Below are positions 38,649-42,671 of a stretch of 64,000 bases of DNA, piece by piece. Position 1 is the stretch's first letter, and the number at the start of each line of letters is the position of its first letter. The notes beneath the pieces are model-generated. The model saw nothing but the letters and a program-made list of their open reading frames with translations. It did not search any database and was not told the origin of the DNA. The translations under genes and the position numbers were made by a program. This DNA comes from Podarcis erhardii (Eukaryota), in assembly GCA_964252035.1 (NCBI GenBank), contig OZ176204.1; one strand, written 5' to 3'.

Positions 38649-39139
38649 TGTTATTCTAAAGCAGCAATGCTGCAGCAAGCAAAGGCTCTAACAGCTCAAA
38701 CAGCTGCTAGTGGCACCAAAGCCAGACAGGATGTGTGTGACTGTTGCCATGGAAACAAAGGGGCAGTCCATCCTTATTGAGCACAGGATATGAGCTCAGT
38801 GTGTGTCATATGACCTGTACAGGATGTACATGGGTGGAGTTTGGAGTTTCTCTCTGTTTGTTGAAGAGAGCAGACATCTTTTACTGTATGACTGCTAAAG
38901 ACAGGAATAAAAGCAATGTAGATACGTTTCTGTCTGAGTCTGATTCCCCTCCCTGGGGATATGCAGGGAGGAGGAGAAGGAGGAGAAGCAGTTGGTGTGT
39001 TTTTCTCACAGCCTGAGGAAAATCGCCGGAACGGACCTCGTGTGTGCATTCCTGCCGGGAGTCGCCGAAGGGAGGTCAAAGGAATTCAGCCGGTGCCTGC
39101 AGATAGGCACATACCTCTGATCGAGCCTGAATTCCAACA
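38649..39139 (+). repeat. 5' LTR
   Basis: tgttattcta...attccaaca; AATAAA 38906-38911; differs from the 3' LTR by 3 substitutions and 1 indel. Confidence 0.97.
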
Positions 39140-39141
39140 GT

Positions 39142-39178
39142 TGGTAGCCAGAGCCAGATGGTTTCTTCGATCCATCGA
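39142..39178 (+). promoter_or_regulatory. Primer binding site complementary to the 3' 30 nt of animal initiator tRNA-Met, with three bulges
   Basis: TGGTAGC-c-AGAG-cca-GATGGTTT-ctt-CGATCCATCGA versus the reverse complement of recalled tRNA-iMet, TGGTAGCAGAGGATGGTTTCGATCCATCGA; starts 2 nt after the LTR. Confidence 0.85.
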
Positions 39179-39643
39179 AGTCTGCATCAAGGAGTGGCAG
39201 AGCTGCTGCTTCCATTGCTCCATGGAAGCCTGCAGTGAGAAAGCTGATTCTCTGCAGCCAGGAGCTGACCAGAAGAAGCTGAAAGCCAAGCTACGGAGCC
39301 CAGGTATGAGATTTTCGGGCTTAGAAGTGTGAATGCAGATTGATTCATTCTCTGCTTCGAGGGAGCAAGGTTTGGGAAAAACAGCTCCGAGAGAGGAGAA
39401 CTCTGCATTCCAAACATTCCTGCGGTTTTTCCTGTCCAAGGAAAAGGAATGCAGTTGCTTAGCAACACAGGCCAGTTTCAAGATAAGGGCTGGAAGTCAG
39501 GCAAAAACAGTTCGTGTTTTGACTAGGCCCTTAGAAAGGAACTCTTGAAAGCGACTTTGCAAGCGGCCAGTGTTAAAGCTGCCAGGTGCACAGAGTGTAA
39601 ACAAGCCAGCTATTGGATTTTAGAGGCTTGTGTTTGAGAGTCA

Positions 39644-42313
39644 ATGCAAGGACTCAAAATGGATGCTAAGAAGGGGGGAGCCCTGCCTTCTCCGCCCCTT
39701 TTGACCAGTGACAATTATGCATCTTGGTCTATTAAGATGAAGGCCCTGCTGCAGAATCAGAGACTGTTTGGGGTGATTGAGAACCCCATCCCTCCAGCAC
39801 CAACGCGTGCTTGGGAGTCACAGGATGTGAAGGCCAGAACTGCTATAATTCTGTGCGTGTCAGACTCTGAGCTTATCCATATACAAGATTTACAGCACGC
39901 GAGAGATGTTTGGGACACGCTGAGAAGGACACATCAGAGAGATGCAGGTTCTTCAGCGTTGCTGTATTTTGAGAAGCTGACCAACCTGAGGCTTGCGCCT
40001 GATGGAGATGTTCAAGCGCACCTGACGGAAATGAAATTTCTGCGTCAACAGATGGTGGAACGTAATTTGCGTCTGCAGGAGGAAGTGTTTTGCTTCATGG
40101 TCATCAACAGTCTGAATCGGACTTACAAAACAGTTGCCAGTCAGCTGGGGTCCCTCCCAGCAGCTGATCTAACGTCGGAAAGGGTCTTTGCCGTGGTTCT
40201 TAATGAACATGACAGACTTGCCGCCCTGGAAGTCAAGGACTGGGGGAGACAAGAACGGAGTTCTGACACCCCCACTGCTACAGCTACTGGAGAAAATGCC
40301 GTAGCTTTGAACGTTGTCCAATGCTACAATTGTGGACAGACTGGGCATCTTCAGCGGTACTGCAAGAAGCCACGTCAGAACAAGGGAGCCAAGGGAAGCT
40401 CCACGAAGTCTGAGGCGTCAGGCAGAGGTCATGCCAAGTCACAGACGAAGCCTGCAAAGGCTTTGATGTCGAAAGGAACCAAGCCAGAAGTGGAGAACAC
40501 TTTTATCATAGACACTGGGTGCACATTTCACATGACCCATCGCAGGGATTTGTTTTCGTCGTTTAAGAAGCAAAGCTTCGTTGTACAACAAGCCAACGGT
40601 CAAGAGCTGGAAGCCACTGGAATTGGGACTGTGTATCTTAAAAGTCAGAACTTGACTATAAACAATGTTTATTTGGTTCCAGAGTTGAAGTACAATCTGC
40701 TCAGCGTTTCGCAGATTGCCAAGAAGGGACTAAAACTGTCCTATGATGATCAACACTGCGAGATCTACAAAGATGGAGAGTTGTATCTTTCTGCCGAAGA
40801 GAAAGATGGACTATATTTGTTGACTTTTGTTCAAAGTGATTACATGGAATGTAATTCTTGTGATTCTAACATGATTTCTTTTGCAGGTGTAGCCAAGAAG
40901 AACACCAAGCAGGTCACCTCGAGGGTCGACAAGGCATTTCAGCGAGTGTATGCTGATGTGATTGGTCCTTTAGCACCATCTAGAGGCAATGCAAAGTATT
41001 ACCTAATATGTGTTGATTCTTTCACAGGTTTTGTCTGGATTTATCTTTTGGAGAGACCGAAAGAAGCCTTAGAAAGGTTTAAAGAGTTTTGTGACAAGGT
41101 TAAAAATATGCATGATGCTGACATAGGTTGTCTTTGCACAGATGAGAAGCCAATTTTTCTTTTACAGGATTTCCAGAGGTTCCTGAAGAAGAAAGGGATA
41201 AGACACAAAATTGCAGCTTCAGAAGAAGCTTGGAACAGATGTGTCTGTGTTAGGGTGAACAAAGAATTGCAAAAGGGAATGGAAGCGCAATTGCTTAGTT
41301 CACATCTGCCACATGAATACTGGGCTGAATCGCTAACGTCATTTTGTTATACGTGGTTGAGAAAGTTTTCAAAAGAGTTGGGAAGTTCTCCTTTTGAGAA
41401 ACTGTTCCATAGAAAACCTTCTGTTGCCCATTTCAAGGTTTTTGGGTCTCATGTGAGGACAGGAGCTCCGGGTGGAGTAAAGAATGTCAGAGGCATTTTT
41501 GTGGGTTATGAGAAGGGTCTCTACAGAGTAATTTTGTCTGAATCTGGTAAGGTGATTCTCACAAAATTTCTAGAGAGTGCTCCTGAACAGGAGAGAGTGG
41601 TTGTTCACACATTTCCCACAGGTGATGATGATGATTCTGATGATGATGTTGATTTTGTTGAGTTCAGTAGTACTGATGACAGCGATAGCTCAGACAGCTC
41701 AGTTGTAACAGTCATTGAGAGGAAATCTCACGTAATGACTAGACCCTCAGAAGAGGAGGAAGACGAACCACTGTTTACAATTGGTACTGGTTCTCCAAAG
41801 AGTCCAAAGGCTGAACCAGAAAGCAAAGAAGAGCAGCACTTCTTACGTAGGTCTGAGCGAGCAACGAAGGGTGTACCACCCAAGAGGTATTCAAAGGAGT
41901 TTGCTAACCTAGCTGTTGCTATTGTAAACGACCAAGGTCAAATTGAAGCTGTGTCTGAGTCAGAGACAAAGGCACAACAGGGAGTTGTTAACCAAGGTAA
42001 TGCAGAAGCACTCATTCCTTGGAAGTCACACAACCAGAGAGGTACATTGGTAAAACCAGTGGCGGGTAGTTCCAAGGGTGGAACTGAAACAACAGGGGAG
42101 TGTTATAAGTATAACAACTGTTTGTTTTCTTCTCTGGATGACGCTTTGCTCACAGCACGCATTGATACTTTAGGGGGAGTATGTTATTCTAAAGCAGCAA
42201 TGCTGCAGCAAGCAAAGGCTCTAACAGCTCAAACAGCTGCTAGTGGCACCAAAGCCAGACAGGATGTGTGTGACTGTTGCCATGGAAACAAAGGGGCAGT
42301 CCATCCTTATTGA
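39644..42313 (+). CDS. Copia-type Gag-protease-degenerate integrase polyprotein, 889 aa, no RT/RNase H
   Basis: Gag (NYASWSIKMKALL...W), CCHC knuckle CYNCGQTGHLQRYC (40322-63), protease IIDTGCTFHM (DTG 40511-19), integrase core YADVIGP/CTDEK, SH3-like GIFVGY, post-IN RRSERATKGVPPKRY; stop lies inside the 3' LTR. Confidence 0.92.
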   Translation: MQGLKMDAKKGGALPSPPLLTSDNYASWSIKMKALLQNQRLFGVIENPIPPAPTRAWESQDVKARTAIILCVSDSELIHIQDLQHARDVWDTLRRTHQRDAGSSALLYFEKLTNLRLAPDGDVQAHLTEMKFLRQQMVERNLRLQEEVFCFMVINSLNRTYKTVASQLGSLPAADLTSERVFAVVLNEHDRLAALEVKDWGRQERSSDTPTATATGENAVALNVVQCYNCGQTGHLQRYCKKPRQNKGAKGSSTKSEASGRGHAKSQTKPAKALMSKGTKPEVENTFIIDTGCTFHMTHRRDLFSSFKKQSFVVQQANGQELEATGIGTVYLKSQNLTINNVYLVPELKYNLLSVSQIAKKGLKLSYDDQHCEIYKDGELYLSAEEKDGLYLLTFVQSDYMECNSCDSNMISFAGVAKKNTKQVTSRVDKAFQRVYADVIGPLAPSRGNAKYYLICVDSFTGFVWIYLLERPKEALERFKEFCDKVKNMHDADIGCLCTDEKPIFLLQDFQRFLKKKGIRHKIAASEEAWNRCVCVRVNKELQKGMEAQLLSSHLPHEYWAESLTSFCYTWLRKFSKELGSSPFEKLFHRKPSVAHFKVFGSHVRTGAPGGVKNVRGIFVGYEKGLYRVILSESGKVILTKFLESAPEQERVVVHTFPTGDDDDSDDDVDFVEFSSTDDSDSSDSSVVTVIERKSHVMTRPSEEEEDEPLFTIGTGSPKSPKAEPESKEEQHFLRRSERATKGVPPKRYSKEFANLAVAIVNDQGQIEAVSESETKAQQGVVNQGNAEALIPWKSHNQRGTLVKPVAGSSKGGTETTGECYKYNNCLFSSLDDALLTARIDTLGGVCYSKAAMLQQAKALTAQTAASGTKARQDVCDCCHGNKGAVHPY
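42172..42179 (+). promoter_or_regulatory. Polypurine tract AGGGGGAG
   Basis: 2 nt upstream of the 3' LTR TG; typical copia PPT. Confidence 0.85.
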
Positions 42314-42671
42314 GCACAGGATATGAGCTCAGTGTGTGTCATATGACCTGTACAGGATGTACATGGGTGGAGTTTGGAGTTTCTCTCTGTTTGTTGAAGA
42401 GAGCAGACATCTTTTACTGTATGACTGCTAAAGACAGGAATAAAAGCAATGTAGATACGTTTCTGTCTGAGTCTGATTCCCCTCCCTGGGGATATGCAGG
42501 GAGGAGGAGAAGGAGGAGAAGCAGTTGGTGGTTTTTCTCACAGCCTGAGGAAAATCGCCGGAACGGACCTCGTGTGTGCATTCCTGCCGGGAGTCGCCGG
42601 AGGGAGGTCAAAGGAATTCAGCCGGTGCCTGCAGATAGGCACATACCTCTGATCGAGCCTGAATTTTAACA
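42182..42671 (+). repeat. 3' LTR
   Basis: tgttattcta...attttaaca; AATAAA 42439-42444. Confidence 0.97.

Follow-up and report, generated by a model that had tools for sequence, protein, structure and literature searches.

A probable RT-less satellite copia family of lacertid lizards that keeps a pseudo-integrase

Introduction

LTR retrotransposon families that have no reverse transcriptase (RT) of their own have been described several times. In wheat, RLG_WHAM and RLG_Sabrina_SA (helper RLG_Wilma) carry an intact Gag-protease frame and no RT and are long-lived (35-45 Myr), with minimal homology to the helper beyond the PBS and the LTR ends (PMC9744471). The TR-GAG elements of plants and algae are by definition shorter than 4 kb and show similarity to Gag only (PMC4350172). 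The sugar-beet families, wheat Quinta and Cereba and barley BARE-2 are reported as non-autonomous and helper-dependent, with Gag/protease plus pol remnants (10.64898/2026.03.01.708851).

Vertebrates enter this picture too. The ETn elements of the mouse are non-coding. They are moved by MusD, which makes a vertebrate satellite/helper LTR pair, but one of the ERV lineage (10.1101/2024.09.13.612906). In squamates, copia elements (Mtanga clade) are described in a survey as abundant and recently active (PMC11889832). LTR candidates stayed in that survey if BLAST matched them to RT/RNase H, and RT-less families would drop out of it (PMC11889832). An RT-bearing copia has also inserted recently in a snake, at OCA2 of the corn snake (PMC4657000).

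Here we describe a 4,023-bp copia-type LTR element (38649-42671), found as a single copy in the window, i.e., the whole stretch of 64 kb that was analyzed. It has no RT, and its one long open frame still codes for Gag, protease and a remnant of integrase.

Results

All the features described below are on the + strand. The element has the organization of a Ty1/copia LTR retrotransposon, with paired TG...CA LTRs, a 5-bp duplication, a PBS and a polypurine tract (PPT). Its 5' LTR (491 nt, 38649-39139, with AATAAA at 38906) and 3' LTR (490 nt, 42182-42671, with AATAAA at 42439) are 99.2% identical over 491 columns, the differences being three transitions and one one-base indel, which agrees with the ca. 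99% given in the first-pass annotation of this DNA. The other signals that it had named were found as well: the same five bases at both ends (38644-38648 and 42672-42676), the PBS (39142-39178, after a 2-nt spacer) and the PPT (42172-42181). The PBS consists of four blocks (39142-48, 39150-53, 39157-65 and 39169-78) separated by bulges of 1, 3, and 3 nt, and matching the 3' end of what we take to be the primer, initiator tRNA-Met. The leader (519 nt, 39140-39658) contains five upstream ATGs, not counting the in-frame ATG at 39644, and its folding over 39100-39330 was not better than that of shuffles (z -0.5, 58/200 as good). Rfam gave four matches in 38600-39700, all at chance level and none of them a tRNA, and ARAGORN found no tRNA gene in the 64-kb window. 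The element lies in an intron of PCDH15, in sense relative to this gene; it has sites that resemble splice sites, besides its poly(A) signal, and the insertion may be polymorphic and may alter expression.

An open frame of 891 codons spans 39638-42313 (889 codons if counted from the first ATG, at 39644); when the bases of the element were shuffled 200 times, no frame exceeded 222. Such coding capacity sets the element apart from TRIM and LARD elements, which have none. The uninterrupted frame that had been noted earlier is therefore real, with two amendments. The ATG at 39659 is the likelier start (884 aa, 39659-42313), because it aligns with the first Met of the related proteins P0004 and P0030, and the frame ends inside the 3' LTR, after reading through the PPT and 43 further codons to a stop at 42311-42313, 126 nt ahead of AATAAA. 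It codes for Gag, CCHC knuckle, protease, pseudo-integrase and a tail. The copia-type Gag or capsid (39695-40231; PF14223, E 2.4e-24, and DUF4219) was modeled with pLDDT mostly >90, the zinc knuckle of the nucleocapsid (40322-40363) matched PF00098 above the cutoff, and the aspartic protease (40502-40834, catalytic Asp at 40511-40513; PF22936, E 4.7e-22) retains 17 of 22 conserved columns, so the earlier impression that these three parts are intact was borne out. The domains follow the copia order of protease-integrase-(RT-RNase H) after Gag, i.e., Gag, protease, integrase core, SH3 and, last, an RNase H relic, collinear with the RT-bearing protein P0003.

What an autonomous copia would have in addition, an RT with YxDD and an RNase H, is missing. 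Pfam detected neither RVT_2 nor the pre-integrase domain in the ORF (P0003, as a positive control, gave RVT_2 at E 9.6e-70), and no [YF]xDD was found in any of the six frames of the internal region, in agreement with the first-pass annotation. The tail upstream of the PPT (41597-42079) is predicted to be disordered and contains an acidic linker, a basic Arg/Lys motif common to the element and its autonomous relatives, and a possible RT lead-in. This lead-in, which had been read as a degenerate remnant of RT, was matched as well by 124/2000 shuffles, and that reading was dropped. RNase H, said to be absent, is indeed absent as a functional domain, but the next 16 codons (42080-42127), which overlap both a run of purines and an inverted repeat of 16 nt, are 9/16 identical to positions 1201-1216 of P0003 (score 58, 0/2000 shuffles). 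The top three of 82 RT-bearing proteins place these codons at the RNase H motif by local alignment; over all 82, the best placements were 13 at RNase H, 22 at YxDD and 47 elsewhere. MAFFT, unlike local alignment, set the tail of the element on the YxDD region of RT, and the corresponding match of the Zootoca vivipara protein P0025 to RNase H is weak (63/2000 shuffles). The relic is thus likely, but not certain, to derive from RNase H. The tails of the element and P0025 are alike (score 96, 0/2000 shuffles), and that of the element, although predicted to be disordered, is 94-95% identical to that of P0002, which suggests constraint at the RNA level or recombination in this part.

The integrase is neither whole nor simply decayed. 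Of its N-terminal zinc-binding region a stub remains (40835-40927, from the comparison of spacings), both histidines being lost along with ca. 55 residues. The distance from protease to core is 46-49 aa in three RT-less proteins (47 in the element, 46 in P0025), vs. 101-103 in P0026 and P0003 and 79-156 in 121 of 125 other rows. The core (40928-41404) has Asp at 40955 and 41141 and Val as the third residue of the triad (41249), so that the HHCC and D,D(35)E signatures of an autonomous copia are both broken. Among 171 stored proteins with an integrase-core match, 156 have the D,D,E triad and five have this Val, all of them members of the RT-less family; P0025 has lost all three catalytic residues. 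The Pfam match of the core is below the cutoff (20.5 vs. 32.6 bits), while its best sequence match to a solved structure is the integrase 7z0h_W (E 4.4e-8). It is followed by an SH3-like integrase C-terminal domain (41405-41596; PF25597, E 2.7e-5, below the cutoff; pLDDT ca. 90). The structure model of the core resembles the integrases of foamy virus and RSV; having been built on a 73-row alignment rich in intact integrases, it indicates compatibility with the fold and is not independent proof of it. When the integrase-like domain was modeled as a complex of two copies, the prediction scored 0.00, and it was weighed neither for nor against binding.

Within this domain the hydrophobic core is kept in 38 of 46 columns, and the lost columns cluster in the loop of the second Asp and in the catalytic loop and helix. 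Against P0022 and P0002, core and SH3 together show an excess of conservative changes (p 0.004-0.017). The integrase of the element departs from the majority more often than that of P0003 (36 vs. 16, p 0.008). Its identity to the nearest RT-bearing relative is close to that of Gag (39 vs. 42%). The strong divergence attributed earlier to the integrase is in consequence true of specific sites (zinc-binding region, catalytic loop, third acidic residue) and not of the domain as a whole.

Gene models of Podarcis lilfordi on two contigs code for proteins 75-78% identical to that of the element, with the same architecture, and so does the full-length P0025 (869 aa) at 40% identity. The ca. 55-residue deletion in the integrase zinc region and the third-position Val are common to the three, and the RT-less tail to the element, P0002 and P0025. 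Of the retrieved proteins that have an RT, the closest was only 35% identical, and no near-identical RT-bearing sibling was found in the protein databases. There, the proposal of a family sharing one deletion, as opposed to a single deleted copy, survived its test. The relatives lie at loci other than the PCDH15 intron and not at one orthologous site, being annotated inside host gene models (V2R, FAM168A; P0025 is by name a FAM168A isoform); with LTRs 99.2% identical, this is not the picture of a domesticated gene, with decayed LTRs and one locus. P0002 is partial and skips query residues 316-419, P0022 breaks off ahead of the tail, the models of P0004 and P0029 are chimeric, and P0030 and P0032 are Gag-only fragments. 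P0026 (845 aa) was considered as a further RT-less member and rejected; it is 67% identical to P0003, has intact HHCC and D,D,E, ends at the start of RT and is treated here as a probable truncated autonomous copy.

In an integrase tree of 35 rows the RT-less proteins form a clade with 100/100 support, sister to P0003 and P0026 at 100/99, although branches could be drawn together by the length of the integrase stem. A Gag-to-protease tree of 18 rows joined the element and P0025 at SH-aLRT 91 (support not starred), a quick protease tree gave the RT-less proteins 89, and Gag alone leaves the clade unsupported. The element and P0025 also have 13 rare core residues in common, vs. 7 and 2 in the remaining pairs.

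These two lineages are 47% identical in integrase, 42% in Gag, 48% in protease and 23% in the linkers. Identity in the core (74/159) clearly exceeds that in the linkers (27/115, p 6.5e-5) and is indistinguishable from that in Gag (p 0.38), and the ML distances are nearly equal, 1.25 for Gag, 1.24 for protease and 1.20 for integrase. The integrase distance to 13 outgroups, however, is 2.85-2.97 for the RT-less proteins vs. 1.82-1.84 for the intact pair P0003/P0026; arithmetic on the ML distances gives the element's own branch 0.42 for integrase vs. 0.45 for Gag. The dead integrase thus appears, from these protein comparisons, to have changed fast early on and to have been held since under constraint comparable to that on Gag. 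The "heavy drift" noted at first is too mild a term for such an early burst followed by Gag-like constraint. Random decay is a poor description as well, and the long-lived lineage suggested at the outset gains weight from losses shared across 40% identity and from integrase substitutions that are conservative and spare the core. The relatives were compared as proteins, and because the databases hold only open frames the absence of stops (4-6 expected) is biased.

Discussion

We consider it likely that the element, itself young, belongs to an old copia family of lacertid lizards that is semi-autonomous (a satellite), depends on a helper and keeps a pseudo-integrase. It could also belong to a semi-autonomous Gag-protease family in which the integrase stretch is a passenger, open only for translation up to the vicinity of the poly(A) signal, which would avoid RNA decay, or for RNA packaging signals. 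The frame that crosses the PPT and stops shortly before AATAAA would fit a passenger, and so would the near identity of the disordered tail to P0002 and the faster departure of the integrase from the majority than in P0003. However, constraint on an open frame or on RNA does not predict an integrase twice as conserved as the linkers, nor the retention of its hydrophobic core and the excess of conservative changes, and we regard both variants together as unlikely. The family would be younger and narrower if the element and P0025 had lost RT independently, or if P0025 were a domesticated Zootoca gene. Its host-gene name, the absence of all three catalytic residues and the unsupportive Gag tree point in that direction; the equal length of the deletion, the same Val, the common tail, the shared rare core residues and the equally constrained branch of the element point away from it, and the final residues of P0025 could be encoded by a purine tract and the start of an LTR. 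On balance independent loss or domestication seems improbable.

Even less can be said for two other possibilities. A host-domesticated gene or restriction factor, curbing autonomous copia with a dominant-negative Gag/integrase, might well look like a dead but folded integrase fused to Gag, with relatives found within host gene models; the near-identical LTRs, the target duplication, the intact PBS and PPT and the scatter of relatives over different loci make it very improbable. If the element were an ordinary autonomous copia that had suffered one chance internal deletion and was dead on arrival, as many new LTR insertions are (PMC9744471), the single copy in the window would be expected, but identical losses in Podarcis and Zootoca proteins and the low identity of the nearest RT-bearing protein retrieved leave this reading next to no credibility.

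The satellite family that we favor cannot copy or integrate itself, because it has no RT and no catalytic integrase. For each new copy, RT/RNase H and an active integrase must therefore be supplied by an autonomous copia with the same primer and LTR ends. In the mechanism we propose, the RNA of the element would be translated into Gag, protease and pseudo-integrase, its Gag would preferentially package its own RNA, and helper Pol would be co-packaged into the satellite particle. Mixed satellite/helper capsids are uncertain, because Gag identity to P0003 and P0026, the closest proteins that are intact, is no more than 42-43%. A match of PBS and LTR ends was seen only in the corn-snake copia, from a different host, which has the same first five LTR bases and, read by eye, the same first PBS blocks and 1-nt bulge (PMC4657000). 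The parent lineage is expected within the Mtanga clade, from the squamate survey (PMC11889832).

As to the pseudo-integrase, the outer integrase subunits of foamy virus are joined by core-core contact, with the other domains dispensable (PMC6784120), and HIV-1 integrase that has lost catalysis still binds RNA and gives complementation in mixed multimers (PMC9144474). By analogy, and within the satellite reading, the pseudo-integrase may tentatively be seen as a non-catalytic partner of the helper integrase, paired core to core. It would fit only the supporting (outer) position, because it no longer has the zinc domain at its N-terminus, the catalytic loop or the third acidic residue, and it may hook helper Pol and so bring it into the satellite particle. 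RNA binding or particle maturation would be an alternative job. Stimulation of RT in trans is unlikely, since integrase provided separately did not rescue reverse transcription in Ty1 and Ty3 (PMC5371799). In its strongest form, that of a lizard satellite tens of millions of years old with a natural outer-subunit-only integrase adaptor, which recruits helper Pol with its RT and diverts the enzymes to satellite RNA, the idea is possible but doubtful; if true, it would amount to protein-level hyperparasitism among LTR elements.

Set against the systems described so far, the element shares with RLG_WHAM and RLG_Sabrina_SA an intact Gag-protease frame in an RT-less family. Those are plant gypsy elements in which RT and integrase are absent (PMC9744471), whereas here a vertebrate copia has an integrase that is dead but folded and constrained. 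The likeness to TR-GAG extends to LTRs, PBS, PPT, 5-bp duplication, a single ORF, PF14223 Gag with zinc knuckle and no RT (PMC4350172), but at 4,023 bp the element is just over 4 kb, and it has protease, integrase core and SH3-like domain. The sugar-beet type is described as having patchy pol remnants that have decayed in part (10.64898/2026.03.01.708851), while this remnant is in frame and conserved over ca. 1.2 substitutions per site. The corn-snake OCA2 insertion, alike in LTR start and PBS type, has RT and RNase H (PMC4657000), as do the Mtanga elements (PMC11889832). Foamy-virus outer protomers and HIV-1 class I/II complementation show integrase cores with structural or RNA roles and no catalysis (PMC6784120, PMC9144474), but there the non-catalytic form is a product of the same gene or a mutant made in the laboratory, and here a separate natural element would encode that form alone. 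In the titles and opening lines of abstracts searched, a set that lies outside Repbase, Dfam and the majority of subscription journals, no lizard copia was described that lacks RT and still has an integrase. Annotation has a blind spot, the frames of such families being filed under host names such as V2R and FAM168A.

A dead integrase under Gag-like constraint implies that integrase has a selectable role beyond cutting and joining DNA; catalysis and DNA-end binding can be read from the columns that are lost and the non-catalytic role from those that are kept. This role becomes testable in copia, whose intasome architecture is poorly known. Semi-autonomous LTR families were known mostly from plants, with Gag or Gag-protease only, and what appears to be new here is the dead integrase retained by the copia of a vertebrate.

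A family of RT-less copia elements

The initial observation proved real and reaches further than first noted: the element at 38649-42671 belongs to an old family of copia elements that lack RT and have conserved a pseudo-integrase, a catalytically dead integrase-like domain. Pfam identified a copia Gag, a CCHC knuckle, a protease and an SH3-like domain in the window protein (the product of its ORF), with the integrase core below cutoff and, as had been noted, no RT match. The closest RT-bearing protein retrieved, the 1,338-aa copia polyprotein P0003, is 35% identical and collinear with it as far as the RT start. 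Compared with P0003, the window protein lacks ca. 55 residues containing both integrase zinc-site histidines, and it retains the first and second catalytic Asp, the third position being Val.

Relatives were sought in protein databases by word-index searches and an exhaustive search. Two Podarcis lilfordi models, P0002 and P0022 (contigs of 103 and 123 Mb), were 75-78% identical to the window protein, P0002 having the same tail without RT plus a read-through into the LTR, and a chimeric P. muralis model (P0004) contained Gag-protease pieces 77% identical. P0025, from Zootoca vivipara (869 aa, misnamed FAM168A isoform X1), aligned over the full length at 40% identity and ranked second among the matches in 1.84 billion representatives; its tail also aligned with that of the window protein (score 96, 0 of 2000 shuffles). 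Three of these relatives carry host-gene annotations: P0002, P0004 and P0025, of which two are filed as vomeronasal receptor and one as FAM168A. The named species point to a lacertid as the probable host.

The protease-to-core distance is 47 residues in the window protein, 49 in P0022 and 46 in P0025; it is 101-103 in P0003 and its close relative with intact integrase, P0026, and 79-156 in 121 of 125 other rows (those with residues at both columns). An integrase-core match was present in 171 of the 180 proteins collected; 156 of these carried D,D,E and 10 were incomplete or sporadic. Val occupied the third position in five (the window protein, P0002, P0022, P0025 and P0029), all of the same RT-less family, and in P0025 all three catalytic acidic residues are gone. 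An integrase tree was built on 35 rows, with 6 close relatives and, as references, 29 of the first 30 among 76 RT-bearing candidates. It placed all four RT-less proteins in one clade (100/100), sister to the intact pair P0003/P0026 (100/99). Because the RT-less integrase stem is long, other regions were checked: the grouping appeared with the protease (89) and with Gag through protease (91; 18 rows, not starred), and with Gag alone it was not recovered as resolved. A single origin is the best reading of these sequences, and the shared deletions are its main support. The same deletions in Podarcis and Zootoca proteins, down to 40% identity, bear out the first-pass annotation in its view of a long-lived lineage, not a one-off, although P0025 could be a domesticated copy.

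Divergence and constraint of the pseudo-integrase

The integrase had been described as strongly diverged beside a Gag, knuckle and protease that look intact. Of 52 core columns, defined on 125 reference rows (many of them fragments, with RT presence verified for part only), the window protein keeps 21 and P0025 18, while P0003 keeps 37 and P0026 34. Gag (13/20 in the window protein, 17/20 in P0025) and protease (17/22 and 18/22) have no loss like that of the core. The relative rate was elevated in the core (36 vs. 16, p 0.008), with no elevation in Gag, protease or SH3. Losses concentrate in two places, the loop that follows the second Asp and the catalytic loop with its helix; of the 46 hydrophobic columns of the core, 38 were retained.

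Between the two RT-less lineages identity is 47% in the core, 42% in Gag, 48% in the protease and 23% in the linkers, and the ML distances are 1.20 for integrase, 1.25 for Gag and 1.24 for protease. Together with the column losses, these values point to a burst on the stem and, after it, to Gag-like constraint on the pseudo-integrase, though a looser one than the intact pair shows (integrase 0.25 vs. Gag 0.32). At shallower divergence, conservative differences in core plus SH3 were 21 of 43 against P0022 and 24 of 48 against P0002 (31-32% expected, p 0.004-0.017); for the protease on its own, the excess did not reach significance (p 0.08-0.11). Stops are absent where 4-6 would be expected, weak evidence since protein databases contain open frames only.

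The structure model (73-row alignment) was confident for Gag, protease and integrase core plus SH3 (pLDDT mostly >90), with the final 240 residues disordered. Foamy-virus and RSV integrases were the top structural matches of the integrase part; among solved structures the top sequence match was 7z0h_W, 635 aa, which we take to be the Ty1 integrase, as its length agrees with the published one. The degenerate RT lead-in claimed before the PPT did not hold up well: the match downstream of the integrase linker was reached by 124 of 2000 shuffles, and its identity is doubtful. A 16-residue RNase H relic follows (0 of 2000 shuffles). Overlapping this relic, at 42094-42116, a purine run precedes an inverted repeat of 16 nt whose ends resemble those of an LTR, a pattern found nowhere else in the window, either chance or the leftover of an older LTR boundary. 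The tail (41846-42181) is predicted to be disordered, yet it is 94-95% identical to P0002 (core 74%), reflecting either RNA-level constraint near the PPT or subfamily recombination.

The insertion and its surroundings

Three transitions and one 1-nt indel separate the LTRs (491 and 490 nt), identical 5 bases flank both ends, and the frame at 39638-42313 is open over 891 codons (maximum 222 in 200 shuffles), all consistent with the ~99% LTR identity, 5-bp TSD and long ORF annotated previously. This frame crosses the PPT and stops 43 codons into the 3' LTR, 126 nt upstream of AATAAA. The K2P distance of 0.006 (Poisson range 0.001-0.018) gives an age of 1-3 Myr at our assumed rate of 1-3e-9 changes/site/year. 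Two of the three substitutions are adjacent, at the U5 tip (39134-39135 and 42666-42667); the 5' version creates an inverted repeat spanning the LTR/PBS junction and with the 3' version the terminal inverted repeat reaches 5 bp. It may be that the two LTRs were unequal from the start, in which case 1-3 Myr is an upper bound. No second copy or solo LTR was seen in the window.

A PCDH15 exon lies at 36718-36945 (+), matching solved protocadherin-15 at E 1.6e-39, and the matches at 16686, 44791, 55393 and 62514-62700 (+) are presumably further exons, judging by motif matches. As these surround the element on the same strand, it is a sense intronic insertion in PCDH15. Also in sense are an acceptor-like site inside the LTR (39000-39011), a donor-like site in the leader (39302-39308) and poly(A) signals at 38906 and 42439; PCDH15 transcripts could be exonised or truncated by them.

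Elsewhere, a 449-codon frame at 18654-20003 (-) has no Pfam match; a feature search led to eukaryotic clusters at 0.95 and, more weakly, to folds of the RAG1-like RNase H type at 0.85-0.87. We presume it to be a Transib/Chapaev-type transposase, and terminal repeats were not found around it. A broken LINE with RVT_1 pieces (25299-28750, -) is interrupted by a 380-bp self-inverted insert (26862-27239) related to 34450-34636. There are also MITE-like related elements of ~230 bp with 25-nt terminal inverted repeats (44167-44397, 12171-12406, 14744-14981), a dispersed ~300-360-bp repeat family, 69-90% identical (23509-23867, 57826-58188, 63694-64000, 8189-8419), and an assembly gap of 184 N remote from the element (7996-8179).

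Proposed mechanism

Without RT and active integrase, the element requires a helper, an autonomous copia supplying both, and its cis signals would be compatible with an RT-bearing one. Its PBS presumably pairs with initiator tRNA-Met in four blocks. Split primer sites for this tRNA are described for Ty1 and Ty3 (PMC5371799). An RT-bearing copia insertion causes corn-snake amelanism (PMC4657000), and by eye this copia and the element share the first five LTR bases, a 2-nt spacer and, in the PBS, the first blocks and a 1-nt bulge. With Gag, knuckle and protease retained, the element RNA would build its own particle, for which WHAM and Sabrina_SA offer comparison (PMC9744471).

For the pseudo-integrase we favour, by analogy, non-catalytic partnership with the helper integrase. 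In the foamy-virus intasome only inner subunits catalyze, and outer ones attach core to core, their remaining domains being dispensable (PMC6784120); catalytically dead HIV-1 integrase complements within mixed multimers (PMC9144474). On this comparison, the features lost by the window protein are those required of an inner subunit. A role in RNA binding or maturation would come close behind. That the domain stimulates RT in trans seems unlikely, because this failed for Ty1 and Ty3 (PMC5371799); in Ty1, the C-terminus of integrase has its effect on RT in cis (PMC9673352).

Comparison with known systems

Mtanga-clade copia are abundant in squamates according to the metazoan survey (PMC11889832), which picked elements via RT/RNase H BLAST, so that an RT-less family would not be retained. 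Our literature search found no description of an RT-less copia with a kept integrase; Repbase and Dfam, outside its scope, may hold the family unremarked. Having kept integrase, the element falls outside the TR-GAG definition (PMC4350172) and the WHAM-type class (PMC9744471). Families from sugar beet that carry pol remnants have been characterised as partly decayed (10.64898/2026.03.01.708851). PMC6894440, PMC7497039 and 10.1101/2024.09.13.612906 provide general precedent only. We propose that the element works like the semi-autonomous elements of plants.
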